DNA of 64,000 nucleotides, from assembly GCF_006345805.1 (NCBI RefSeq), contig NC_043021.1, positions 1,178,001 through 1,242,000 of the forward strand, written 5' to 3'. The notes beneath the pieces are model-generated. The model had not been told where the DNA came from and did no database searches. It saw nothing but the letters and a program-made list of their open reading frames with translations. The position numbers were made by a program, and so were the translations under genes. This document shows, piece by piece, positions 1 through 63,586 of this stretch (position 1 is its first letter; each line of letters opens with the position of its first letter). Source of the stretch: Octopus sinensis (Eukaryota).

Positions 1-3000
1 ATGAGGGTATAAGCTGGTCAGTGGTAGGAAGGCAAAATGTCAGGGGAGTTGATTAGGAGGATATAAGCTGGTCAGTGGTAGGATTGCAAAATGTCAGGGG
101 AGTTGAATATGAGGGTATAAGCTGGTCAGTGGTAGGAAGGCAAAATGTCAGGGGAGTTGAATATGAGGGTATAAGCTGGTCAGTGGTAGGAAGGCAAAAT
201 GTCAGGGGTGTTGAATATGAAGGTATAAGCTGGTCAGTGGTAGGAAGGCAAAATGTCAGGGGAGTTGAATAGGAGGATATAAGCTGGTCAGTGGTAGGAT
301 TGCAAAATGTCAGGGGAGTTGAATATGAGGGTATAAGCTGGTCAGTGGTAGGAAGGCAAAATGTCAGGGGAGTTGAATATGAGGGTATAAGCTGGTCAGT
401 GGTAGGAAGGCAAAATGTCAGGGGAGTTGAATATGAGGGTATAAGCTGGTCAGTGGTAGGATGGCAAAAGGTCAGGGGAGTTGAATATGGGGGTATAAGC
501 TGGTCAGTGGTAGGATGGCAAAACGTCAGGGGAGTGGAATATGAGGGTATAAGCTGGTCAGTGGTAGGAAGGCAAAATGTCAGGGGAGTTGAATATGATG
601 ATATAAGCTGGTCAGTGGTAGGATGGCAAAATGTCAGGGGAGTTTAATATGAGGATATAAGCTGGTCAGTGGTAGGATGGCAAAATGTCAGTGGAGTTGA
701 ATATGAGGATATAAGCTGGTCAGTGGTAGGATTGCAAAATGTCAGGGGAGTTGAATATGAGGATATAAGCTGGTCAGTGGTAGGATGGCAAAACGTCAGG
801 GGAGTTGAATATGAGGGTATAAGCTGGTCAGTGGTAGGATGGCAAAATGTCAGGGGAGTGGAATATGAGGGTAATAGCTGGTCTGTGGTAGGATGGCAAA
901 ACGTCAGGGGAGTTGAATATGAGGATATAAGCTGGTCAGTGGTAGGATGGCAAAATGTCAGGGGAGTGAATATGAGGATATAAGCTGGTCAGTGGTAGGA
1001 TGGCAAAATGTCAGGGGAGTTATGAGGATATAAGCTGGTCAGTGGTAGGATGGCAAAATGTCAGGGGAGTTGAATATGAGGGTATAAGCTGGTCAGTGGT
1101 AGGATGGCAAAATGTCAGGGGAGTGGAATATGAGGATATAAGCTGGTCAGTGGTAGGATGGCAAAACGTCAGGGGAGTTGAATATGAGGTATAAGCTGGT
1201 CAGTGGTAGGAAGGCAAAATGTCAGGGGAGTTGAATATGAGGGTATAAGCTGGTCAGTGGTAGGAAGGCAAAATGTCAGGGGAGTTGATTAGGAGGATAT
1301 AAGCTGGTCAGTGGTAGGAGGATTGCAAAATGTCAGGGGAGTTGAATATGAGGGTATAAGCTGGTCAGTGGTAGGAAGGCAAAATGTCAGGGGAGTTGAA
1401 TATGAGGGTATAAGCTGGTCAGTGGTAGGGAGGCAAAATGTCAGGGGTGTTGAATATGAAGGTATAAGCTGGTCAGTGGTAGGAAGGCAAAATGTCAGGG
1501 GAGTTGAATAGGAGGATATAAGCTGGTCAGTGGTAGGATTGCAAAATGTCAGGGGAGTTGAATATGAGGGTATAAGCTGGTCAGTGGTAGGAAGGCAAAA
1601 TGTCAGGGGAGTTGAATATGAGGGTATAAGCTGGTCAGTGGTAGGAAGGCAAAATGTCAGGGGTGTTGAATATGAGGGTATAAGCTGGTCAGTGGTAGGA
1701 TGGCAAAATGTCAGGGGAGTTGAATATGAGGGTATAAGCTGGTCAGTGGTAGGAAGGCAAAATGTCAGGGGAGTTGAATATGAGGGTATAAGCTGGTCAG
1801 TGGTAGGAAGGCAAAATGTCAGGGGAGTTGAATATGAGGGTATAAGCTGGTCAGTGGTAGGAAGGCAAAATGTCAGGGGAGTTGAATATGAGGGTATAAG
1901 CTGGTCAGTGGTAGGAAGGCAAAATGTCAGGGGAGTTGAATATGAGGATATAAGCTGGTCAGTGGTAGGATTGCAAAATGTCAGGGGAGTTGAATATGAG
2001 GGTATAAGCTGGTCAGTGGTAGGATGGCAAAATGTCAGGGGAGTTGAATATGAGGGTATAAGCTAGTCAGTGGTAGGAAGGCAAAATGTCAGGGGAGTTG
2101 AATATGAGGGTATAAGCTGGTCAGTGGTAGGAAGGCAAAATGTCAGGGGAGTTGAATATGAGGGTATAAGCTGGTCAGTGGTAGGAAGGCAAAATGTCAG
2201 GGGAGTTGAATAGGAGATATAAGCTGGTCAGTGGTAGGATTGTAAAATGTCAGGGGAGTTGAATATGAGGGTATAAGCTGGTCAGTGGTAGGAAGGAAAA
2301 TGTCAGGGGAGTTGAATATGAGGGTATAAGCTGGTCAGTGGTAGGAAGGAGGTAAAATGTCAGGGGAGTTGAATATGAGGATATAAGCTGGTCAGTGGTA
2401 GGATGGCAAAACGTCAGGGGAGTTGAATATGAGGATATAAGCTGGTCAGTGGTAGGATGGCAAAATGTCAGGGGAGTAGAATATGAGGATATAAGCTGGT
2501 CAGTGGTAGGATGGCAAAACGTCAGGAGTTGAATATGAGGGTATAAGCTGGTCAGTGGTAGGATGGCAAAATGTCAGGGGAGTTGAATATGAGGGTATAA
2601 GCTGGTCAGTGGTAGGATGGCAAAATGTCAGGGGAGTTGAATATGAGGGTATAAGCTGGTCAGTGGTAGGATGGCAAAACATCAGGGGAGTTGAATATGA
2701 GGATATAAGCTGGTCAGTGGTAGGATGGCAAAATGTCAGGGGAGTTGAATATGAGGTATAAGCTGGTCAGTGGTAGGATGGCAAAAGGTCAGGGGAGTTG
2801 AATATGAGGGTATAAGCTGGTCAGTGGTAGGATGGCAAAACGTCAGGGGAGTGGAATATGAGGGTATAAGCTGGTCAGTGGTAGGAAGGCAAAATGTCAG
2901 GGGGGAGTTGAATGATGATATAAGCTGGTCAGTGGTAGGATGGCAAAATGTCAGGGGAGTTGAATATGAGGATATAAGCTGGTCAGTGGTAGGATGGCAA

Positions 3001-5230
3001 AATGTCAGTGGAGTTGAATATGAGGATATAAGCTGGTCAGTGGTAGGATTGCAAAATGTCAGGGGAGTTGAATATGAGGATATAAGCTGGTCAGTGGTAG
3101 GAAGGCAAAATGTCAGGGGAGTTGAATATGAGGATATAAGCTGGTCAGTGGTAGGATGGCAAAATGTCAGGGGAGTTGAATATGAGGATATAAGCTGGTC
3201 AGTGGTAGGAAGGCAAAATGTCAGGGGAGTTGAATATGAGGATATAAGCTGGTCAGTGGTAGGATGGCAAAATGTCAGGGGAGTTGAATATGAGGATATA
3301 AGCTGGTCAGTGGTAGGATTGCAAAATGTCAGGGGAGTTGAATATTAGGATATAAGCTGGTCAGTGGTAGGATGGCAAAATGTCAGGTGAGTTGAATATG
3401 AGGATATAAGCTGGCCAGTGGTAGGATGGCAAAATGTCAGGGGAGTTGAATATGAGGATATAAGCTGGTCAGTGGTAGGATGGCAAAATGTCAGGGGAGT
3501 TGAATATGAGGATATAAGCTGGTCAGTGGTAGGATTGCAAAATGTCAGGGGAGTTGAATATGAGGATATAAGCTGGTCAGTGGTAGGAAGGCAAAATGTC
3601 AGGGGTGTTGAATATGAGGATATAAGCTGGTCAGTGGTAGGATGGCAAAATGTCAGGGGAGTTGAATATGAGGCTATAAGCTGGTCAGTGGTAGGATTGC
3701 AAAATATCAGGGGAGTTGAATATGAGGATATAAGCTGGTCAGTGGTAGGATGGCAAAATGTCAGGGGAGTTGAATATGAGGATATAAGCTGGTCAGTGGT
3801 AGGATGGCAAAATGTCAGGGGAGTTGAATATGAGGATATAAGCTGGTCAGTGGTAGGAAGGCAAAATGTCAGGGGAGTTGAATATGAGGATATAAGCTGG
3901 TCAGTGGTAGGATGGCAAAATGTCAGGGGAGTTGAATATGATGATATAAGCTGGTCAGTGGTAGGATGGCAAAATGTCAGGGGAGTTGAATATGAGGATA
4001 TAAGGTGGTCAGTGGTAGGATGGCAAAACGTCAGGGGAGTTGAATATGATGATATAAGCTGGTCAGTGGTAGGATGGCAAAATATCAGGGGAGTTGAATA
4101 TGAGGATATAAGCTGGTCAGTGGTAGGATGGCAAAATGTCAGGGGAGTTGAATATGATGATATAACCTGTTCAGTGGTAGGATTGCAAAATGTCAGGGGA
4201 GTTGAATATGAGGATATAAGCTGGTCAGTGGTAGGATGGCAAAATGTCGGGGGAGTTGAATTTGACGATATAAGCTGGTAGCTGGTAGGATGGCAAAATG
4301 TCAGGGGAGTTGAATATGAGGATATAAGCTTGTCAGTGGTAGGATGGCAAAATGTCAGGGGAGTTGAATATGATGATATAAGCTGGTCAGTGGTAGGATT
4401 GCAAAATGTCAGGGGAGTTGAATATGAGGATATAAGCTGGTCAGTGGTAGGATTGCAAAATGTCAGGGGAGTTGAATATGAGGATATAAGCTGGTCAGTG
4501 GTAGGATGGCAAAATGTCAGGGGAGTTGAATATGAGGATATAAGCTGGTCAGTGGTAGGATGGCAAAATGTCAGGGGAGTTGAATATGAGGATATAAGCT
4601 GGTCAGTGGTAGGATGGCAAAATGTCAGGGGAGTTGAATATGAGGATATTAGCTGGTCAGTGGTAGGATTGCAAAATGTCAGGGGAGTTGAATATGATGA
4701 TATAAGCTGGTCAGTGGTAGGATGGCAAAATGTCAGGGGAGTTGAATATGAGGATATATGCTGGTCAGTGGTAGGATGGCAAAATGTCAGGGGAGTTGAA
4801 TATGAGGATATAAGCTGGTCAGTGGTAGGATGGCAAAATGTCAGGGGAGTTGAATATGAGGATATAAGCTGGTCAGTGGTAGGATGGCAAAATGTCAGGA
4901 GAGTTGAATATGAGGATATAAGCTGGTCAGTGGTAGGATTGCAAAATGTCAGGGGAGTTGAATATGAGGATATAAGCTGGTCAGTGGTAGGATGGCAAAA
5001 TGTCAGGGGAGTGGAATATGAGGATATAAGCTGGTCAGTGGTAGGATTGCAAAATGTCAGGGGAGTTGAATATGAGGATATAAGCTGGTCAGTGGTAGGA
5101 TGGCAAAATGTCAGGGGAGTTGAATATAAGGATATAAGCTGGTCAGTGGTAGGATGGCAAAATGTCAGGGGAGTTGAATATGATGACATAAGGTGGTCAG
5201 TGGTAGGATGGCAAAACGTCAGGGGAGTTC
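1..5230. repeat. 54-bp tandem minisatellite, about 97 units, runs off the window start
   Basis: Consensus GAATATGAGGATATAAGCTGGTCAGTGGTAGGATGGCAAAATGTCAGGGGAGTT repeated head-to-tail. It produces the 18-aa repeat ORFs on both strands. Confidence 0.98.
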
Positions 5231-7413: not shown

Positions 7414-10130
<2,717 letters not shown>

Positions 10131-13707: not shown

Positions 13708-14807
13708 ATCTATACACACAGAATATACATACGTACGAATATATATATGACGACAATGATAATGGATCTTCGTCGTGTGACTACGAGGATTCAGTTGTTG
13801 GGTAAACTTAACGTGTATTGTTAGATTGATTCCCAGGAAGAACCTGCCTCAACATTCGATGTGACAACACTGGATCCTTAAATTACTAGAACAATCCATT
13901 CAATTGGCTTCTGTACAGTTTTCGCCAACCCAGTTCCTCTTATAAGATATTGGTAAATTTGAGTCTTTAGAAAATGACACAGACCCAAATTGCCATGCAT
14001 TGAGATCGAATCCAGAACGTCGTAGCTATGAAGCGAACCTCTTAAGTATTCGGTGCCTATTAAGGGATTGACAAGTTCAAAAAGAAGCTGTTTCCGGCTA
14101 CTTATAATAAAGAACTCATCTGAGAGTGCATAAAAATGTCTAATTCATTATCGTTAGTTCGACAGAATATATCCTGTTTCGCCTGTCACTAATCGGGAAC
14201 TCACGATGATTTTTCTGTCAGTTAACAAGACAATTTCTGAAGAACAAATCCTGACCCTGAAATATTGAAATATCAAGTAAAAAAACCCCATCGACTTGCG
14301 TTGGTTTTAATAACTTGTATTTTTATAACCTGTATACACATACATACATACATACATATGTGTGTGAGTTTGTGTATGAGAGAGAGAGAGAGAAAGAGAG
14401 AGATTGACTATCTTCCACTTCCATATTCCAGAAGCCAGTGAACCAAGACTTTGTGTGACTTCAGAGAAAGAAAGGCAGAAATGTAAAACATTCCAGAACA
14501 TTACATGTGTGAAAGGCTCCAGTGCTAGCGATTGCCTGGAAAAAATCGCTAAGAATTTGGCTGATATAACGAGTCTTGACGGAGGAAACATTTACAAAGC
14601 CGGCAAGTAAGTTTATTAATTAATTTATTTATTTATCATTGTTGTTGTTATTATCATTATTATTATCTTCTTTAAATTCTGTTTCCATTTTTTGCCGAGT
14701 GTCTTCCTGATACCTAAGGCAAAGAAACTCACGGTGTGCATTGGTAGGCCATTAGAATAAACACATCAGATTGTTCATTTACAAAGTTAGGTGATAGAAA
14801 AAAGGGA

Positions 14808-14870
<63 letters not shown>

Positions 14871-17800
14871 TAAAGATAGAAAAAAATAAAAAAACAAAGA
14901 AAACAAAGGGGAAAGAAATAAAGGAAAGAAAATTTCCAGCAGTATTGCTCTTCTCCGTACTTGTGAAGTATCAGATAAAACAATCTTTTGTACTTCCTGT
15001 ATGGATGGTAAGCCAGGGATCATCCTCAAATGATTTTCAGTTCCATTTTTGATCATTCCAAGTGCTCTTACAATCACTGGTATTGTAGCCGTCTTTACGA
15101 TTTCGATTACCAAATCTTCATATTTTCTGAGCTTATCGAATTCTTTTGCCGAGATGTTATGATCACAGGCTCTGCTCGAGTCAATCAATGAGCAGACTTC
15201 ATTGTTTTGGTCTTTCACAACAATATCTGGTTTGATGGTCCGGTCTGTACATACTGGAAAGTCCCAAAGAATCTTAACATTTTCTCGCTCAGTTACAACC
15301 TCAGGGTGGTGCTTGTTGCCGTTGTTATCAAAAGGTAGCGAGCTGGCAGAATCGTTAGCACCCCAGGCAAAGTGCTTAGCAGGATTTCGTCTGTCTTTAC
15401 GTTCTGAGTCCGACTATAACTGCAGGGTACGGATTACATGGTTACCATAACATTCTTAGCTGATTAGGGTGCCTAGACTCCTGTAACTGTAACAACACTA
15501 TAAACAACAAAAAGTATAGGCAGAGAGTTAAGCAACCGGATCTTTTGGAAAACACAGTTCGAGTCACAGAAAGACTGGGGCTGTTGACAGAAATTATTAA
15601 AAAAGAAAATCAGTATTCAAAGAGAGAGAAAAGTGAAGCAAGCGATTATGTTATCGACTAAACAAATCGATGTATAGTGACTTACATCAACGTGAAAAGC
15701 CGGCGCATTGGAAGACTAGCCGTAGAGCTTTCGGAAAGGTGTTTGGGGCTAGTGTAGAAGTAAAAGCTGTCGTCATGCGAGGCAAACAATTTGTCAAACA
15801 CTTGATATTTGGATTGGGATCAACGAGGCACTCCCCAGCGTCACTTAGAAATGAGTTGTTGATCCTTCTTTCATCATACACGTTGCGGAGGTAAGGGCAG
15901 TAGATGTGTTAAAAGAAATATGTTGGGGCTGGTGGTGGCGGTAGGTGATGGCTCTCTTACCTGATGACGGATCGTCTGTCTTTTCATAGGAATAAAGCAA
16001 GTGGTCCTTCTCACTCCTCCCCTTTCGTCCAACATGGTCTTATTCAAAATGGAGTGAATGCATAGGGTCTGGGGCCGCTTCGCAAGTAAAGTCATTTACT
16101 CGGCGACCTCAGGTATCTAGGCAACGATATAATGGCCATCACCGAAATCAAGATTTCCGAAGCACGAGACTTCGTACTCCTCTTCAACGGCTACGGGCTT
16201 ATCCCCTGATCGACTGGGTTCAGATGACTGAATCACTGCTGTTGAGGAAAGGTCTGGATCTCGCATTACGAACCATCTTCCTGGATTCAGAGAGTGAGTC
16301 GGTGGGGACCGGCAGCGATAGACATATCTTTAAACAAGTAAGCGTCTACACTTCGACAGGGGCGGAGCGGCTGGATTCTTTAGGCAGTTGTAGTCCTTCT
16401 TAGGAACGACTTACTCTTTAGGAGCTGTGGGAAGGTGGAACTGCATCGTTGATGCACACCAGGACAGTATGGGATTGACACGATAGAAGGGAGGATAAAA
16501 GCCAGGAAGAGCAAAATAGCCATTATCTGTCTGGTAGTATACACACACACACGCGCGTGCGCGCGCACGCACACACACATAACATAGTGGAGACTGCAAC
16601 ACAAAATGGCCGTCATTATGCATGAATGAATATTTGCTTGTATGTGCGTGAGAGTGCGTGTGTGTGTGTACGTGTGCGTGTACGTGTGCGTGTACGTGTG
16701 CGTGTGTGTGTATTATGTGTATAAATGTAGAGCATCAGAAGACGATCGGAAAGTATATCAATCGAAATATATAAATATAAAGCAGAACCAGAAATGAATT
16801 TAGTAATATTAAGTTAGTGATATCAGATAATCTTCCTCATTATTTAAATATTGGTTTCTCTAGGTGCTATAATCTAAAACCCATTGTAGCAGAAACTTAT
16901 AGTGGTTTACCTATTGGAGCAGGTTACTTCGCTGTAGCCGTAGCAAAGAAAAGCTCAAATGTTAATATCAACACGTTACAAGGTAAGTAATTTCCGATAT
17001 TCATTTCTTATTAAAAAAAAAAGCAAGGTCAAAATCTAGGGACGATGAGATAATGGTAAGATTTTTGGCTCGAGTGGCATTTAAACCCAGAACGAAAATG
17101 GATGTAAGATGGGAATTTATCTAACAGGCCTCTGGTTTTTCCAGGCAACTCCCCAAATCACAATAGAACACAACTGACATAATCAGCATTGAAAATCGTT
17201 GTCGTATGAGTCCCCAGCGACAAGAGAACGACCATTATTCTGCAGTGAAGTAAATGGATCGATCATAATTAAACGGTACTAATAACATTGTTTAACTAAA
17301 TCAAAAGCAAGGGGGACCATTCAGAGTCAATACAAAAAAGTGTTATGTATTTGTAATTTCATTCACAACTGAAATACATTATAAGAAACGACTCAAGTAC
17401 CTGTCTGGTATTTCATTTTATTCAGCCCAGGAAGATGAAAAGAACAGCTGATGCGGACGGAACTTAAGTTCAGAACCTAAAGGGTTACGACTAAATACCA
17501 AAGCTATTTTGACTGACTGACGATTCTACCTCTTCAATGAAGCATCACAGTCACAACTAATTTTATATGGAAATTGCTTATACTATGACAACAAAAATAT
17601 GTCTGATCTTTAACAGATAAGGGTGACAAATTTAGACATGTTTTTGTCATATTATCAAACCTCCTCAATGCCACAATCATTTGGATCACTCGTTTCAATA
17701 GCAAGCATTGTGAAACTTGGTTCTTACAAATGATCGAAAGTAGGTGTCGTGATGCTTATGACTTTTCATATTAAAGGATATTGAGCCTGTTTCAATATTT

Positions 17801-18800
17801 ACCGATTCCGTTACTCCACCACACTTGTCGCAATAATATCAACTATTTCTAACATTGGTACAAAGCTACATATCTTAGCAATGGGGCAAGTGAATCACAT
17901 TGAGACCTAGTATTATAATGGCAGTGCTATATGCATTATACGAACAATTATTTTACTGACCCTAGAAGGAAGAAGTACGAAGTTGGCTCGCGTGGCATTT
18001 AAACCCAGAGCGAAAATGGGTGTAACATGGGAATTTATCTAACAGGCTTCTTTCTTCCAGGCAACTCCCCAAATCACAACAAAACATAAAAAGGCTTTTC
18101 AGATGCTAACTTGAAACGGTTTCTTTTCAAGATTTCTGCGCTTTCTTTCGTGTGAAATGTTTTTTTATATTTTTCAAAAATTTTATTTCCTTTCTCTCTT
18201 TTTCCAGGTAAGATATCTTGTCACACAGGTCTGAACAAAACTGCTGGTTGGTTTATTCCGATGAGTGTATTATTTACTAATAAGAACAACCAGTTAACTC
18301 AAGCTTCGAATTTTTTCAATGCAAGCTGTGTCCCTGGTGCAATAAATGGTTCAAATATGTGCAGGTTGTGCACTCCGAACTGCAAACGGAACAGTGATAA
18401 TTTTTACTACGGGTACAACGGAGCAGCTAAATGCTTGATGGAGACTGAAGCTGATGTTGCCTTTGTGAAGCATAGTACATTCCTGAAGGAACTTACAAAA
18501 AGTGATTATGAATTATTGTGCGCGGATGGGTCAACGGCCGAAATCGGAGATTACGAACAATGCCATCTGGCTCAAGTTCCTCCTCATGCAATTGTTGGTA
18601 GAAACAACTTGACCGATGACCAAATCGAAGAAATATTTGAAAACTTTGATAGCAAAAGTGATAGCACTCTATTTTCTGACAAGTTCGGTAAAAACTTGAT
18701 ATTTTCATCTAGTACTGAATCCCTTATTGAGATACTCAGTCACTATGAAGCCTTTTTGGGTCCGAGTTATATGAACGCTTTGCCGGATATTTCCTGTTGA
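10773..18800 (+). CDS. Single-lobe (monolobal) transferrin-family protein, 314 aa, 4 coding exons (10773-10830, 14432-14606, 16864-16982, 18208-18800)
   Basis: GT-AG introns with compatible phases (1,2,1); 58+175+119+593=945 nt. Signal peptide followed by transferrin motifs [80 protein letters not shown]. Confidence 0.93.
11866..12245 (+). mobile_element. tRNA-derived SINE (family A, with CCTTGGGCAAGT CORE-like motif)
   Basis: GGCTGTGTGATAAGAAGCTTGCTTCCC head, GGCACCTTGGGCAAGT, internal (GT)n, CTTAGCGGTTCGGCAAAA tail; further copies at about 37905, 45290, 52115 and 62005. Confidence 0.75.
12309..12378 (+). mobile_element. tRNA-derived SINE head / tRNA pseudogene
   Basis: A-box TAGCTTAATGGT and B-box GTTCGAGTCCC; related copy at 59266-59334 (-). 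Confidence 0.55.
12487..13475 (+). mobile_element. Degenerate RTE-clade LINE reverse transcriptase fragment (intron 1)
   Basis: [56 protein letters not shown] across frameshifted ORFs. Confidence 0.88.
14432..14606 (+). CDS. Transferrin-like exon 2
   Basis: Acceptor TTCCAG; [18 protein letters not shown]...[16 protein letters not shown]; donor AA|GTAAGT. Confidence 0.92.
14665..15315 (-). mobile_element. 3' fragment of R4/Dong-like (RLE) non-LTR retrotransposon (intron 2)
   Basis: [16 protein letters not shown]...IPVIVRALG...VQKIVL; same family and 3' UTR as 62500-63497; (TAA)-like tail. Confidence 0.85.
15338..15410 (+). mobile_element. tRNA-derived SINE head (family B)
   Basis: GCGAGCTGGCAGAATCGTTAGCA...TTTCGTCTG...TACGTTCTGAGT matches the heads at 36996-37078 and 57228. 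Confidence 0.75.
16030..16520 (+). mobile_element. Degenerate L1/Tx1-like AP-endonuclease N-terminal fragment
   Basis: Remnant NA*GLG...HLLGDLR...DIMAITEIK resembles the NxRGL...DI..ET start of APE domains. Confidence 0.5.
16864..16982 (+). CDS. Transferrin-like exon 3 (absent from the ORF track)
   Basis: Acceptor TTTCTCTAG; [39 protein letters not shown]; donor AG|GTAAGT. Confidence 0.92.
18208..18800 (+). CDS. Transferrin-like exon 4 (last coding exon)
   Basis: Long polypyrimidine tract plus CAG; [19 protein letters not shown] continuing into ORF 18261-18800; TGA stop. Confidence 0.94.
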
Positions 18801-31925: not shown

Positions 31926-33120
31926 CGATGTTTGCTCCTACTGCGAAGCATCATGGGCAACTGTCTTCTGCTAAAGACTTGGATCGAGCTGAGTCTTGAA
32001 TGCCAACTCTAATATACAGAAACCAAGTAAAAGGCTGCCAGAAACATCGTTCTTGTTCTTAGCTGGAAGACTTAACGTTCAACAGTGCCATTGACCTCAA
32101 AACAAAGTTTCTCCAAGCTAGGTTCATGGAAGAATTTGAACTCAGCATTGCAAGTTTTGAAACAGCTACCAGTTACACAATATTGTTGGGCACAGTAGAA
32201 GGTGATAGAATACGTACCATGAACACATCGGATCGAATCGGGTTTCAGTTCATTTAAATTTCCATTTAACTTTGATAACGGGAACAAAGGGTACATTTAG
32301 AGGTGACCAGTAAGAAGCATTTGGGCCAGTTCCCATAACTCTTACCTTTTATTCATTAGTGAATGATCTCGCATAAAATTAAGATATTTGTTAAAAATAG
32401 AATATATTTTCCAAATGGTTCAACTGCACTGGTTTTTTCCACCTCACCATGACCTAGAACTCTATTTCGGCTTTTAACTTAATTATCATGGCGGAACATG
32501 TCTTCCCGGCGTCCTTATCATTTTTATTTATGTTCATGTCGTATTTCTGTTGTCCCATATGTAAATCAGTAATGTAATAAATGTCATGATCGCATTCTAT
32601 TACTCGTGTATAAATATAACATACACACACACACTCATACACAAATACACATATAGGCACACATACCCCCCCCCCCCCACACACACACAAATACACAGTC
32701 ATATCTGGATATGGTATTCGTATAAATGATATTATGCATTATAAGTACTTAGTTGCGATTTGGGTAGCATCGTGAACCGCATAAAAATCGTCATTAGCCG
32801 AGCAGATCGGTCATGAATTATACTTCAGTGCATTTGCACTGCACTTTCTTAAATTAAATAGTTTAAGAACTTACTGATATTTAATTGAACAATTTAATTT
32901 CTCTAAGTATTTCATTCGTTTCACATATAATTTGTCAGCCATAAGTGCTAATAGAACGGACGTTCTATTAGCACTTCACAGTTTCAAATCAGTACTTTTT
33001 ACGTTTAATGTTTTTACGTTTAATGTTTTTACGTTTCTTTTGCTGTGTCTGGGGAGAGTCATTCTCTTTTAACGCCTTATTATTTAATACACTCACCTTT
33101 AAAGTTTTCCCTCATTTACT

Positions 33121-33918
33121 TATTTATTTTTGACCCCGAAAGGATGAAAGGTAGACCTCAGCGGAATTTGAACTCAGAACGTAGCGGCAGACGAAATACC
33201 ACTAAGCCTTTCGCCCGGCGTGCTGACGATTCTTTTCTATTCTAGGCACAAGACTCGAAATTTTGGGGGAGGGCGCTAGTCGATTAGATCGACCCCAGTA
33301 CGCAACTGGTACTTAATTTATCGACCCGAAAGGATGAAAGGCAAAGTCGACCTCGGCGGAATTTGAACTCACAACGTAAAGACAACCGAAATACCTATTT
33401 CTTTACTACTCACAAGGGGCTAAACACAGAGGGGACAAACAAGGACATGAATGCGGATTAAGTCGATTACATCGACCCCAGTGCGTAACTGGTACTTATT
33501 TAATCGACCCCGAAAGGATGAAAGGCAAAGTCGACCTCGGCGGAATTTGAACTCACAACGTAACGGCAGACGAAATACCTATTTCTTTACTACCCACAAG
33601 GGGCTAAACACAGAGAGGACAAACGGATTAAGTCGATTATATCAACTCCAGTGCGTAACTGGTACTTATTTAATCGACCCCGAAAGGATGAAAGGCAAAG
33701 TCGAACTCGGCGGAATTTGAACTCAGAACGTAACGGCAGACGAAATACCTATTTCTTTACTACCCACAAGGGGCTAAACACAGAGAGGACAAACGGATTA
33801 AGTCGATTATATCAACTCCAGTGCGTAACTGGTACTTATTTAATCGACCCCGAAAGGATGAAAGGCAAAGTCGAACTCGGTGGAATTTGAACTCAGAACG
33901 TAACGGCAGACGAAATAC
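33121..33918 (-). mobile_element. Head-to-tail array of five family B tRNA-SINE units (three ~170-185-bp units carry a Tx1-like 3' tail)
   Basis: Repeated TCGACCCCGAAAGGATGAAAGGCAAAGTCGA...GGAATTTGAACTC (B box) units; junctions at 33395, 33579 and 33749 all follow GAAATACC. Confidence 0.88.
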
Positions 33919-36900
33919 GAATTTCTTTATTGCCCATCGGGGGCCAAACATAGATATGGGCAGTACAACTGATGGGATCAGTGAATCGATATTATTTTAC
34001 ATAAATGTGACTTTAAAAATAAAATACAATACATAAAAAATCGAATGGAATACGCAGTACAAAGCAATACAAATGAAACGATGATCAGGTTACGCTCCGA
34101 TCCCACAAGCCCCGATCTACCGCTGATACCTTTTTTTTTCCTTTTTTTTCCGTCTATTCACACGGTTCCTTGCACGCACAACACTCGTGCAACATGCTTC
34201 CATCTCTTTTGGAACGTACACTCTGACAGACACCTCTTCTCCAGCCACAGTTTCCTTTTCAAATGAAAAGAAAAAACAAATCGTAAATTGTGACCAGAGA
34301 TAAAGTTGCCTGTCTTAATTCCTTTTATCCTAGTCTTCCATACAGCCTCTTTTGCTATTGCTACAACCGTGAGAAAACAATTCTTACCTTCGTTCGTTAG
34401 AACTCCCGGTGGGTCAATTTTTATAATTGACTCAGTCGACAGTTGTACTCTTCCTTCGCCGGACAACAGGTGTTCAGCATAAGCCCACATTTCAGTTATA
34501 TCCGGACACTGAACAATAGCGTGAGGGACGGTTTCCCTGTCCCCCCCCCCGCATCTTGGACAGGTCGGCGACTGACGTATACCATGTCTTGCGAGCTTAT
34601 CCCAAACGGGCAAGGCACCTCTGTAGCATTGCCAGGTTAAGGACTTTTGGAAGTTGTCCAACGTTCTCAACCCGAATGTACGATGAAACAGGCTGTCCAG
34701 TTGAATAAATCCGAGACCTAGAGTCGACCCCAGGCCATCGTCACATTCAGACTCTACCAACCCACTATATAAAATCCGTGTGGAACCCCCACCACTGGCG
34801 TTGCCCGAGCGCCGGAACAGCAAGAGGGCCTTACGGCACTCTTTATGCCACTCACTCGACCTCGGTCTACGAGAACACCAGGCTCCCTGTTCGCAAAAAC
34901 TCTTGAACTCAGGGAACATTTGTCTGGCTAGCGGAGACCAGACCCGTTCACTATCCAGGAGAATCCAGAGGTGCCTCAACCTCAACGCATGTCTGCGCAT
35001 CATTAACCAAGGCATCCCTAAACCTCCCTTTAAAGGCTTTTGACAGCAGACAGAGCGTTTCACAAGTGGCGACCTGCCCTTCCACAAAAAGTGAAAGAGC
35101 TGTCTCTCCAACCTGATCAACCACGAATCCGGACAGGGTACGACGGTCAAGCGGTAAGTAATGACCGATGCGATAAACACATTGGCCACCCCCGCCCTCC
35201 CTTTCAGGGATAGCCACCGTCAAGACCAGGTCTTGACTACTTCAGCCACCCTGCTCAATATCTCCGTCCAGTTCTCTATCGGGAGGCCTGGTCCAAACCA
35301 AACTCCCAGCAACTTAACCGGTCCCTCCGTCCAGCGCCCAACAATGCTGTCTGAAGGCATCGACTTGCCAACCCAGGTGCCGAGCTGCAAGCCGACTGAC
35401 TTTTCCCGGTTAATCTTTGCTCCTGCCACCTCCTCGTAAGCCTCAATAGTCTTACCTACTTCACGTAGGCGTGCTACTGTGGTTACACTGATAGTGATAT
35501 CATCCGTGAAAGCCGTAACAAACTCCTCTAGTCCTGGTTCTCTCGGGATGCCACTCAACCTTCGCAGTAATGGCTCGAGAGCCATCACATACAAAAGTGG
35601 TGTAAGCGGACATCCTTGACGAACCGAGCGTTTGATGCAGAATGGCTTCGAAAGGAAACCGTTCACCCGAACTATCGAGTCAATGTTGTGGTACAAAGCG
35701 ATAAACCACCTGAGGAAGCCAAGACCCAGGCCAAACCGCGCAAGTACAGTCGCTAGGTATCGATGGTCAACCCTATCAAAAGCTTTAGACTGGTCCAAAT
35801 GCACCAATGCCCCACCTTTGCCATATTTATTACCAACCCTCTCTATGGTATAGCGAATAAGATGGAGGGTATCCTGAATGGTATAGCCTGGGATGGCACA
35901 TGTCTGTGCCTCCCCGACTATACCATTCGCGACACGCGCCAACCTTTTTGCTAGAACCTTAGCCAAAATCTTCACTTCTGCGTTTAACAGAGTGATGGGC
36001 CTGAAATTTTCTAGAACGTCCCCCTTGTCCGGGTCCTTTCTGACCAACGTCAATACTCCCCGGCGCACAGATCTGGGGATAAACCCATTCTGTTTCCAGT
36101 TCGCGTACACGTCAGTCAGTAGTTGCCCGAACAAGTCTGGCATACATTTATACAGCTCGTACGGAAGACCATCAAGTCCCGGCGACTTACCCGCTTTACA
36201 ATCGGCCAAAGCCTCCATCACCTCCTCAGGCGTGATTGGCCCTTCGCAAGACTCCGCATCCGATCCCGAGAGGCACGGCAGCCCGGCAAGAAAGTCCTCG
36301 AGGGCTCTCCCACCACCAGGACCGCCGTCACCCCCGAACAGCTGGGCGAAGTACTCCCGAAAGACCTCACACATTTTCTCGGGTTCGTTTACAAAGACAC
36401 CATTTTGATTCGTCAAAGACCGAATAGAGGAACTATTTTCTTGCCGAGCTTCCACCACTCGGGCCCATCCAGCGGCCTTGATTCCTTCACTTCCCATTGC
36501 ACGTAACTTAGCTCTGGCAATACTTCCCATGTGGTGGGCTTCAAGATGCTGGTTTAACTCCAGTCTTTTCACCCTCGCTTGGTCTGCATTACCAGTCCTC
36601 CAGGCTTCTTCTAGTTCCTTATCTAGACCATCTCCTATTTTACGTCCCTTCTTAGCTAAACTTATGCTAAACCTAATAGACTCATATTTGATGGCTCTTT
36701 TTAGGGCGTACCACCATTTGTTATTAATGATGGTACCTGTTAATGCCCTCTGTATTAACATCTTGATCCGCTTTCTGTACTCCTCAATCGCCAAAAGGGA
36801 CGTATTGAGTTTCCAGTAGCCAGATCCCTGTCTATGCAACTTATCTACCGTCAGTTTACAGGTAACCATCTTGTGATCACTGTAGCTGACTAGAAAAAAC

Positions 36901-36995
36901 TGTGGACACTTAACTATGGACTTATCTTTTTCTCTAATTAAAATCCTATCTAGATATGTTCTGGTAGACCCGTCACTATTTGACCACGTCCAACC
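33919..36995 (-). mobile_element. 5'-truncated L1/Tx1-clade LINE: APE C-terminus, RT and CCHC, with one in-frame stop
   Basis: 36995-36870 translates GWTWSNSDGSTRTYLDR...SDHK. Then KSPGLDGLP, FRPITLLN, LDQSKAFDRV, RQGCPL, FTDD; TGA at 35220-35222 is in frame with ORF 34158-35189 (CPRC...H...C). AATAAA at the 3' end. Confidence 0.95.
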
Positions 36996-37078
36996 GGAAT
37001 TTGAACTCAGAACGTAACGGCAGACGAAATACTGTTAAGCATTTCGCCCGGCGTGCTAACGTTTCTGCCAGCTCGCCG
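36996..37078 (-). mobile_element. Intact family B SINE tRNA head (A and B boxes) abutting the LINE 5' truncation
   Basis: Minus strand GGCGAGCTGGCAGAAACGTTAGC...GAGTTCAAATTCC. Confidence 0.85.
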
Positions 37079-37158
37079 CTACATAATATATAAAATAGTA
37101 ATGATAATAACAACAACAACAACAACAACAACAACATAACAACAACAACAACAACAAC

Positions 37159-37218
<60 letters not shown>

Positions 37219-37231
37219 GATAATGATAATC

Positions 37232-37454
37232 TTTTTTACTTTAGTTACAAGGCGCCAAATTTTTTGGGAGGGGTTAAGTCGATTAGATCGACCCCAGTAC
37301 GGAATTAGTACTTAATTTATCGACCCGGAAGGATGAAAGGCAAAGTCTTCCACGGCGGAATTTGAACTGAGGACATAGCAGCTGACGAAATATCGCTAAG
37401 CATTTCGCCCGGCGTGCTAACAATTCTGCCAGCTTGCCGCTATATAGTATATAA

Positions 37455-37485
<31 letters not shown>

Positions 37486-37657
37486 TAATAATAATTATTA
37501 TTATTATTATTTCTTTACTGCCCACAAGGGGCTAAACATAGAGGGGACAAACAAGGACAGACGAAGGTATTAAGTCGATTATATCGCCCCCAGTGCGAAA
37601 CTGGTACTTTATTTATCGACCCCGAAAGGATGAAAGGCAAAGTTGACCTCGGCGGAA
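37232..37657 (-). mobile_element. Two further family B SINEs (37232-37440 near full length; 37510-37657 truncated, Tx1-type tail) within (TAA)n
   Basis: Same core GAAAGGATGAAAGGCAAAG with two different tail types. Confidence 0.8.
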
Positions 37658-37680
37658 TAATAATAATCATAATAATAATA

Positions 37681-37711
<31 letters not shown>

Positions 37712-55887: not shown

Positions 55888-55891
<4 letters not shown>

Positions 55892-56770
55892 GTTTCTTTA
55901 TTGGCCACACAGGGCTGCACACAGATGGGACAAGTTACAAGGTAGAGCTTTTCTTTTGGGGGATGAAAAAAAAAGGGTAGGCGTAGGTTTTCGATCAAGA
56001 GGGATCGTAAAAGGGAAGAAAAGAACAAAAACATTTTTAAAAAAGAAAAAAAAGAAGAAAAGGAAAAGGAACAAAAGAAAAGAGAAATGAAAAAAGAAAA
56101 AAGGGGAAGAGGAAGGAGAAAAAAAACGATCAATAGGGATCGTGTATCACAGTGTTATGATATATGGTGTAAAGGGGAAAGCAAGTAAGGTTTATCCGTG
56201 GGAAGAAAAGCCTACGAAAAAGACCACGGCAGTCTTGGTCAATATTGTTATATGTTACCACATTTGTTTGCAAGTGGGTAACCCTCTGTTTTCAATTTCT
56301 GGGTTCATAGGATTATGCTCAAGGTGGCTTCGTCATTCATACGTTCCATCCTTGCTACATTCACCCATCTTTTTTTAAAACATTCGCTAGACAAAACTTG
56401 CCTCTCTACTCTCACTTTCCTTTTCAAATGGTACTTGAAGAAGTTGATGAGAGATTGACCAGAGAGGAAAGTGTTTGTCTCCAATCCTTTCAGACGCGTC
56501 CACCAGATACATTCTTTCGCCATAGCCACAAGGATGATGAAAATAGCTCTTCCTTCCCGTTTGAAGGAAGGAGGCGTGACAATATTGACGATAGACTCAG
56601 CTGATAAACCGACTCGTCCCACACGTGACAGCAGTTGTTCGACATAAGCCCACAGGTCGGAAATTGTTGGACACTGCACGAGTGCGTGCAGAACGGTTTC
56701 GTCGCTCTGACCGCATCTCGGGCAGGTCGGCCCCGTGTTTCTCGAGCCGAGTCTGTAGAGCTTATCCCGA
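55888..56770 (-). mobile_element. 3' fragment of a second Tx1-like LINE subfamily between (GATA)n tracts
   Basis: TCPRCGQSDETVLHALVQCP...VAMAKECIWWTRLKG...YHLKRK is homologous to ORF 34158-35189; AATAAA then (TATC)n. Confidence 0.9.
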
Positions 56771-56815
56771 TAGATAGATAGATAGATAGATAGATAGAAG
56801 ATAGATAGATAGATA

Positions 56816-56848
<33 letters not shown>

Positions 56849-56853
56849 TAGAC

Positions 56854-56905
<52 letters not shown>

Positions 56906-56907
<2 letters not shown>

Positions 56908-57070
56908 GTTTCTTTATTGGCCACACAGGGCTGCACACAGATGGGACAAGTTACAAGGTAGAGCTTTTCTTTTGGGGGATGAAAAAAAAAAGGGTAGGCG
57001 TAGGTTTTCGATCAAGAGGGATCGTAAAAGGGAAGAAAAGAACAAAAAAATTTTTAAAAAAGAAAAAAAC
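56906..57070 (-). mobile_element. Second copy of the same Tx1-like 3' UTR end
   Basis: Near-identical to 55888-56050. Confidence 0.88.
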
Positions 57071-62500: not shown

Positions 62501-63497
62501 TTTTTTTTTTCTTCTTTCAAATTTGCTTCCATTTCTTGCCGAGTGTCTTCCCGACTCCTAGGGCAAAGAAACTCATAGTATACATTGGTAGGCCATTAAA
62601 CCAAACTCAATAGTTCGTTCATTTTTTTTTTTTTTTTTTTTAAGTTAAATTAAAATACATGAGCAGCAACAGTTCTCACATCGACAATGCTCTTCTCAAT
62701 ACGTGTGATGTACCAGTTAAGACAATCTTTTGCACTTCTTGCAGGGATGGTAAGCCAGGGATCATTCTCATATAATTTTCGGTTCCCTTCTTGATCATTC
62801 CTAGTGCTCCTACGATCACTGGTATTGTAACCGCCTTGAGATGCCACATTTTCTCAATTTCAATGAGTAGGTCTTTATATTTTCTGAGCTTGTCAAACTC
62901 TTTCGCTGAGATATTATGATCACAGGGGATGCTCATGTCGATCAATAAGCAAACTTTATTGTTTTGGTCTTTCACAACAATATCTGGTTTATTGGCCTTG
63001 ATGGTTCGGTCTGTATGTACTGGAAAGTTCCACAGAATGGTTACATTTTCTCCTTCAGTTACAGCCTCAGGGTGGTGATTATACCACTTGTCAGCAGTTT
63101 TGATATTGTAATGCCGACTTATTAGCCAGTGTAGATATTGGCCAACCCTGTCATGTCTTAATTTATACTCCACTGGAGCTAAGACTTTACATCCAGAGAT
63201 TAGGTGGTCCACTGTTTCAATCATGTCGTTGCAGAATCGGCATTTTGGGTCTGCTCCATTTTTCATCACATTGGCCTGGTAGTTCCGGGTTAATAGGCTT
63301 TGATCTTGAGCAGCCAGGATGAAACCTTCGCTCTCTGCTTTTAGCCCTGAGCTCCGTAGCCACTGATGGGTTTGCTTCTGGTCAACATCAGCTTGTTTGC
63401 TGCGGGTCACATATTTGCCGTGCAGAGGTTTCTCCTCCCACCTATCAGCCAATTGCTCGTGCGCTTTTTTCGTTGCCATTATTTTCACCTTCTTTGC
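62500..63497 (-). mobile_element. 5'-truncated Dong/R4-like element with open CCHC + RLE coding segment (62676-63488), in (TAA)n
   Basis: KPLHG, SEGFILAAQDQ, CRFCNDMIETVDHLISGC, RHD, ANKPDIVV..LIDMSIP..KEFDK..KY; (TAA)n on both sides. Confidence 0.93.
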
Positions 63498-63586
63498 AAC
63501 AATAATTATTATTATTATTATTATTATTATTATTTATTATTATTATTATTTTATTATTATTATTGTTATTATTATTATTATTATTA

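Follow-up and report, generated by a model that had tools for sequence, protein, structure and literature searches.

A nested LINE/SINE stack in Octopus sinensis with LINE and SINE ends at one base of the SINE head

A 64,000-nt stretch of the Octopus sinensis genome (NCBI RefSeq assembly GCF_006345805.1, contig NC_043021.1, positions 1,178,001 to 1,242,000; hereafter the window) contains a nested stack in which a LINE (LINE-A) and three tail-sharing SINE units (U1-U3) share a single base inside a SINE head as their end point (Table 1). We consider it likely, with a probability of roughly 80%, that a Tx1-type LINE lineage with site specificity built the stack through repeated target-primed insertion, one unit likely having been duplicated locally at a later time.

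Organization of the nested stack

All elements of the stack lie on the minus strand, in the order SINE head, LINE-A, U1, U2, U3, U4 and U5. LINE-A and U1-U3 each terminate in A(A/G)TAAAGAAAT(T/A), followed by (C/G)GTATTTCG, and their shared end point is located about 48 nt into the SINE head (site 1). The preliminary description of the locus, whose sequences and coordinates proved accurate to within 1 base, had placed the junctions right after a GAAATAC motif, and this motif does end at 33394, 33578, 33748 and 33918, with a tail coming next each time. Its statement that the units start with the tail has to be reversed; that is, when read on the minus strand, the units end with it. The LINE-like tail ascribed to three of the units is that of U1-U3 (tail A); U4 carries a different tail, type B. 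As had been noted, the A-box half of the head is missing from the internal units of 170, 170 and 184 bp; it is found at the far (5′) end of LINE-A, and 37 bp are duplicated on both flanks of the LINE.

Table 1. Elements of the nested stack and related retroelement copies in the window
Feature	Position	Strand	Remarks
SINE head, nt 1-85, A-box- and B-box-like	36995..37079	-	upstream of the insertion site; last 37 nt recur after the LINE
LINE-A, L1/Tx1-type	33920..36994	-	5′-truncated near nt 2,280 of about 5,360
U1, SINE without head, beginning at site 1, tail type A	33750..33919	-	170 bp; 14-bp deletion relative to U3
U2, likely local duplicate	33580..33749	-	170 bp; 2/170 positions different from U1
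U3, head-less SINE, tail type A	33396..33579	-	184 bp; 7 mismatches and a 14-bp gap relative to U2
U4, head-less SINE, tail-B subfamily	33233..33395	-	163 bp; tail meets site 2 (about nt 15) in the U5 head
U5, SINE starting at head nt ~15	33117..33232	-	3′-truncated within the central domain
Full-length tail-B SINE, neighbour	37233..37427	-	AT-rich upstream flank similar to that of the head at 37079
Tail-A SINE, 5′-truncated, off-target copy	37508..37658	-	inside (TAA)n
Two sister-LINE fragments inside (TATC)n	55891-57060	-	1,825 tail matches genome-wide

The LINE-A copy in the window ends in AATAAAGAAATT, without poly(A). It is 97% identical to full-length copies, and its ORF2 is interrupted by a stop at 35220 (frames at 34158-37034, minus strand). 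The 5′ joint of this copy is atypical in that the duplication measures 37 bp rather than 13-16 and its first base is discordant, perhaps as a result of a template switch to SINE RNA or of a later deletion. Among the SINE units, U1 and U2 are likely local duplicates, as the preliminary description had allowed, because they differ by only two bases and have in common a private 44-mer with 3 matches in the genome, 2 of which are at this locus. U3 and U4 are separate arrivals, and U5 is probably the oldest layer of the stack. When public contigs were compared with positions 32700-37700, the comparison was swamped by paralogues, none of which extended across the whole stretch, and no empty-site allele or ortholog was seen among them.

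Several other features of the window were recorded. The AT-rich upstream flanks of two neighbouring SINE heads (37079-37110 and 37421-37452) are alike, perhaps owing to an old local duplication. A 13-bp hairpin is predicted in the head (37015-37050, minus strand) with site 1 at the edge of its loop, a structure that might be relevant to site recognition. Positions 1-5229 are made up of about 97 copies of a tandemly repeated 54-bp unit (95% matches), recurring frames and repeat matches indicate that a segment is tandemly duplicated, with a period of about 1.3 kb, at ~7600-8425 and ~8900-9735, and an exon for a transferrin-family domain (Pfam PF00405, E 3e-48) lies at 18156-18800 on the plus strand. 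Fragments of the C-terminal region of another retroelement are found on the minus strand at 14787-15413 and at 62676-63533, the latter with a weak zf-RVT match that is below the cut-off.

Target specificity of LINE-A

Genome-wide counts given here and below are pattern matches over the 2.72-Gb genome. The LINE-A tail pattern has 138 matches. Among the first 30 tail loci, 29 were LINEs, all of them (29/29) with site 1 coming next, and the 30th was a SINE; at 20 further loci, site 1 came next in 19. In total, 48 of 49 LINE-A 3′ ends are thus located at one base of the SINE head, to be compared with the more than 20% of flanks in one repeat by which Kojima defined target specificity. The sole exception (L086) is a 131-bp LINE fragment that is flanked by a 16-bp target site duplication (TSD) and occupies a look-alike site. 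The earlier proposal that the target lies within the SINE, and is used by both the LINE and the SINE that shares its tail, is supported by these LINE ends and by the SINE tails at site 1 in unselected DNA (see below).

The SINE copies that LINE-A has entered, between head nt ~47 and 48, were already in place and diverge from one another. Pairwise comparison of the 29 copies whose 5′ end is intact gave median identities of 99.5% and 99.3% for the two ends of the LINE, as against 87.0% for the adjoining head and 88.7% for the adjoining body. The target duplication is 13-16 bp long: it extends over 16 bp as aligned, but the mismatches fall mostly in the last three bases (12, 9 and 7 of 29), and therefore the actual TSD probably measures some 13 bp. 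Its first base is the same on both sides of the LINE in all 29 cases (20 C, 9 G). Taken together, LINE copies that are 99% alike, host SINEs that are only 87-89% alike and duplications of 13-16 bp mean that LINE-A entered many different, older SINE copies independently. The possibility that head, LINE and body move as one composite was rejected in view of the same difference in identity between LINE and flanks, as well as of the commonest LINE-A haplotype (11 of 26 copies), which is found in six C-type and five G-type hosts.

The preliminary description had further proposed that each insertion supplies a new target. This is not supported for the LINE, since LINE 5′ ends follow an intact head at 73 of 29,666 sites and a tail junction at only 2 of 18,788, i.e. 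they are 23 times commoner per site behind a head (odds ratio 23, p=2e-13); in the two exceptional cases, a SINE could have landed in front of a LINE at a later time. Internal tail junctions are poor LINE targets, so that the number of good targets in an array stays at about one: insertion regenerates the target but does not multiply it.

Coding capacity and classification of LINE-A

Full-length LINE-A is about 5.36 kb long, and the majority of copies are full length with a SINE head upstream. In an intact copy (L074), the ORF2 frame of 1,134 aa contains Exo_endo_phos (APE endonuclease), RVT_1 (reverse transcriptase) and zf-RVT domains, and the endonuclease retains its catalytic motifs (ET, Y, GDxN, D and SDH align with the L1 endonuclease). 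ORF1 of the intact copy has a zf-CCHC match of 22.9 bits (cut-off 20.8), and an ORF1 with a CCHC zinc knuckle is a feature of Tx1. The best solved relative is human L1 ORF2p (E 2e-64), with R2 proteins at 1e-20 or weaker. By this relationship, LINE-A belongs to the L1/Tx1 group. Within that group we infer membership of the Tx1 clade, because site-specific LINEs among APE clades are reported to occur only in Tx1 and R1 (PMC6007223); no named Tx1 reference or clade was present among the homologue and Atlas matches to LINE-A.

The SINE family and its junctions

The SINE head contains an A-box-like (TGGCAGAAACG) and a B-box-like (GAGTTCAAATTCC) motif on the minus strand, although ARAGORN identified no tRNA and Rfam gave no tRNA match on the window heads or on L004. 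The central domain presumably resembles the Meta domain of MetaSINEs. Two tail types exist, tail A joining site 1 (about nt 48) and tail B joining a second head site (site 2, about nt 15), as at the U4/U5 boundary, and the SINE tail is 81-88% like LINE 3′ ends over about 40 nt. Solo copies are dispersed and show a TSD of at least 8 bp in 29 of 54 cases (median 14 bp). A further candidate marker of head replacement, head position 19, was dropped because 20 solo tail-B copies were heterogeneous there.

The junction is not unique to this locus. The tail-A pattern has 84,452 exact matches in the genome, and the tail followed by TAGGTATTTCG, i.e. the junction between SINE tail and site 1, has 22,348, with none in either case for the reversed control; the resulting ratio of about a quarter is only approximate because the junction pattern is four letters shorter on the body side than the tail-A pattern. 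In 600 kb of unselected DNA, a strict parse placed 19 of 52 SINE tails at site 1, all 19 with an offset of +2, and a more tolerant BLAST parse of 87 tails gave 38 at site 1, 4 at site 2 and 45 elsewhere. Tail-A SINEs thus end at the base used by LINE-A in about a third of cases, and, in agreement with the caveat that specificity is not absolute, about half to two thirds of them are off-target. The same-tail copy in (TAA)n that had been cited in this respect at 37510 is indeed present, at 37508. A sample of 184 junctions enriched for site 1 contained 165 at site 1, 17 at site 2 and 2 at other positions.

Growth of the arrays

Sampled arrays have 2-10 units, and arrays occur at thousands of dispersed loci; note that the parser used extends only past tail A, hence it is not implied that tail B always comes last. 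Adjacent tail-A units differ by a median of 8.9% in dimers, 7.5% in 3-4-mers and 4.4% in longer arrays, compared to 10.6% between arrays. Adjacent units within 2% of each other were absent from dimers (0/24), rare in 3-4-mers (5/50) and more frequent in arrays of five or more units (12/41), and dimer units were slightly closer than random (p=0.02). No siblings were found among the 1,378 pairs formed by 53 arrays. Furthermore, rare mutations were fewer in the first than in the last unit in 36 of the 53 arrays, with the reverse in 12 and ties in 5 (p=1e-5), and the same order was seen when only arrays ending in tail A were considered (18 versus 9 of 29, p=0.008). Dimers are therefore composed of unrelated units with the younger one upstream, an order that fits regeneration of the target behind the head.

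Since dimers are divergent, longer arrays more alike and sibling arrays absent, arrays are seeded by unrelated copies and extended partly by local duplication. It is very improbable that they arise solely at the DNA level, by tandem duplication, unequal crossover or gene conversion from junction-bearing copies, as in SINE-derived satellites. Such processes would readily account for the near-identity of U1 and U2 with their private 44-mer and for the similar neighbours within arrays of five or more units, that is, for the extension of arrays. Seeding is a different matter: the divergence of dimers, together with the use of one boundary base, equal to the LINE insertion site, at thousands of dispersed loci, refutes DNA-level duplication as sole cause, and argues only indirectly against ectopic gene conversion of junctions. 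Signatures of unequal crossover are thus not all that the arrays show, even though long arrays do show local amplification. Nor do the arrays qualify as a SINE-derived satellite (sSat) in the sense of long, homogeneous DNA-level arrays, given their 2-10 units, the 8.9% divergence in dimers and a homogeneity that is partial and restricted to arrays of at least five units.

Arrays might instead be copies of multimeric master genes, in which case read-through transcripts of a head followed by two units would have been retrotransposed whole and the junction inherited from a few origins. The nearly invariant TAGGTATT junction, the frequent match of the head to the first unit rather than the last and the outer TSDs kept by arrays are all in keeping with this scenario. 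We nevertheless regard it as unlikely, in view of the lack of siblings among the array pairs and the excess of rare mutations in last units; moreover, it is inapplicable to LINE-A, whose copies are far more alike than their flanks.

Under repeated insertion into the head, it has to be explained why the added units bring no second head. The head and junction bases of SINE dimers can be discordant in both directions, with 12 C-type heads over G junctions in 65 arrays and 5 of 12 C junctions under G-type heads, whereas such discord never occurred in the 29 LINE cases. Replacement of part of the head by the cDNA would produce such a pattern, and the missing second head would be best explained by annealing of the SINE cDNA to the head of the host.

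Determinants of the insertion site and mobilization of the SINE

No poly(A) followed any of the 49 LINE-A ends read, despite an AATAAA just upstream. For this reason, the LINE RNA probably runs into the target sequence and pairs with the target, as has been reported for the I factor, R1Bm and R2Ol (PMC6007223). Three observations suggest that RNA also contributes to site choice by the SINE, on top of an endonuclease preference. Firstly, the junction base of the SINE is G in 18,788 cases and C in 220 (99% G) although both head types are common, a bias that differs from LINE-A, where both bases occur. Secondly, TAGGTA follows 16 of 54 solo tail-A copies, at unrelated sites. Thirdly, tail variants are sorted by site, with GTAGT in 122 of 165 site-1 junctions and GCAAT or GCAGT in 14 of 17 site-2 junctions of the enriched sample. 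The G bias could alternatively stem from C-type heads being younger.

In a stronger version of this idea, SINE targeting would be guided by RNA and not by the endonuclease: the enzyme would come from a sister LINE of relaxed specificity, with LINE-A sharing the site separately. SINE genes within arrays would read through to ...AAAUAGGUAUUU, and this end would pair with nicks beginning GGTATT, the best of which is the SINE's own head. We hold this as a tentative possibility only. The three observations above and the pairing precedents are in its favour, as is the fact that the older sister LINE with the closest tail (see below) is not site-specific. On the other hand, pairing of the RNA 3′ end alone fails to explain the 23-fold preference of LINE-A for heads over junctions with identical downstream sequence, a test that was made on the LINE and not on the SINE. 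RNA guidance is, however, compatible with target-primed insertion by a site-specific lineage, and the two need not be exclusive.

As to which LINE moves the SINE, LINE-A copies are a median of 0.7% apart whereas SINE units are about 10% apart. Given that LINE-A is thus much the younger of the two, most of the SINE copying was done by an ancestor or sister of LINE-A. The terminal letters differ as well, being TT in the LINE-A tail and TA in the SINE tail. An older sister LINE (L251, L252, L254, L256, L257 and L258), with 66-79% nucleotide identity to LINE-A where aligned, has a tail that is 84-88% like that of the SINE over 38-45 nt, versus 81% over 42 nt for LINE-A, but none of its six copies is located at the SINE site. 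The preliminary description had pointed to LINE ends at both 33922 and 55893 as resembling the tail of the units. The former is LINE-A at the site; the latter belongs to another family and lies in (TATC)n. The tail of that family is similar (1,825 genomic matches) and 17 of 20 loci are in TATC/TGTC runs; none of the 20 is at the SINE site, which led to rejection of the LINE at 55893 as site-1 partner. Because sisters with equal or closer tails insert elsewhere, tail likeness names a lineage and not one partner, and LINE-A is an unproven candidate for the exact mobilizer of the SINE.

A 1.75-kb element (L093:864-2630, L098:1247-3005, L201-L230) whose tail is related and has 103 pattern matches was also observed at head site 2, forming tandem chains of up to eight or more copies at many loci. 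Among 30 loci, the head was directly next in 4 and the next copy in many others. By its sequence, this element appears to encode only an ORF1-like protein with a CCHC motif.

Proposed mechanism

In the mechanism that we favour, i.e. repeated target-primed insertion, the endonuclease would nick the head site, requiring sequence on both sides of it, and reverse transcription would begin at the common ...AATAAAGAAAT tail, probably aided by pairing of read-through RNA with the target, given that no poly(A) is seen. As the SINE cDNA itself carries a head, its 5′ end would likely anneal to the head of the host, such that one head remains and the unit added consists of site, body and tail. New units would then stack at the 5′ end because nowhere but behind the head is the target restored in full. 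From two units on, slippage or unequal exchange may add near-identical copies, mainly in long arrays. Several observations weigh against this mechanism: the youth of LINE-A and the closer tail of a sister that is not at the site, which leave the mobilizer unproven, the off-target tail-A copies, the 99% G at SINE junctions, the slight excess of similarity within dimers, the atypical 5′ joint of the LINE in the window, and the fact that no empty-site allele or ortholog was seen.

More speculatively, and with less than even confidence on our part, these steps may form a closed, self-steering loop in which the head is the landing site of the partner lineage, the RNA provides a 3′ guide, 5′ joining is driven by homology and sites are partitioned. 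If so, the preferred landing site of the partner lineage would be the SINE's own head, and the landing sequence would be carried as a 3′ guide in the read-through RNA. The choice of target would be inherited via the RNA tail (GTAGT to site 1, GCAAT to site 2), and 5′ joining by homology would set each newcomer right behind a complete putative Pol III promoter. The two head sites and a microsatellite would be shared out among three or more related elements of Tx1 type.

Relationship to known systems

The closest system appears to be that of the crocodilian SINEU-1/2/3 elements and Tx1-Mar LINEs described by Kojima in 2015 (PMC4494074). According to that account, SINEU and the Tx1 LINEs thought to mobilize them have a common target that lies within another repeat, different families use two target regions, SINEU-3 copies in tandem flank a TSD between them as a result of sequential insertion, and sister Tx1 families target microsatellites. 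The octopus elements are thus similar in having a LINE and SINE target in a repeat, two sites, tandem SINEs and microsatellite-targeting sisters. However, the crocodilian target is an unrelated Mariner DNA transposon, whereas in octopus it lies within the SINE's own head, and SINEU heads derive from U1/U2 snRNA, while the octopus pair shares a 3′ tail and its added units are without a head. Self-targeting of the SINE head is therefore the twist relative to this precedent. The same source summarizes Tx1 of Xenopus in Tx1D, Keno in U2 genes and Kibi and Koshi in microsatellites; these are, like LINE-A, site-specific APE-type LINEs with a multicopy repeat as safe site, but as summarized there, none of the targets is a SINE mobilized by the same LINE lineage (PMC4494074).

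The SINE-derived satellites of squamates are likewise tandem arrays of part of a SINE, with longer arrays more homogeneous, but they may comprise as many as 1000 units, and unequal recombination is given as their main cause (PMC10702118), in contrast to the 2-10 units and the LINE-site boundary seen here. It is only the later local amplification of octopus arrays that they resemble.

Ohshima and Okada reportedly described the octopus tRNA-derived SINEs OK, OR1 and OR2 in 1994. These and the MetaSINEs (PMC4824008) would resemble the present family in tRNA-type A and B boxes, in the central domain and in exchangeable LINE-derived tails, here types A and B; the MetaSINE account gives no Tx1 partner or self-targeting. 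In O. vulgaris, 13 recently active L1-Tx1 families have been reported, in an account that does not give their targets (PMC13282606). No report of this LINE/SINE system was found in the literature searched, although a prior description is possible, Repbase and several primary papers having been beyond reach.

Significance

With more than 22,000 SINE junctions, about 140 young LINE ends and intact ORFs, the octopus elements provide a large natural case of a retrotransposon whose safe site is made by its own parasite, and they show a route from a SINE to short tandem arrays. Repeat annotation in such genomes will split the arrays into false families, which calls for caution. Since both host and insert carry diagnostic bases at tens of thousands of independent junctions, the respective shares of the endonuclease and of RNA-DNA pairing in target choice can be tested, as can the mode of 5′ end joining. 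Finally, being young, nearly strict in its choice of site and intact in ORF2, the LINE is a candidate for studies of targeted retrotransposition.
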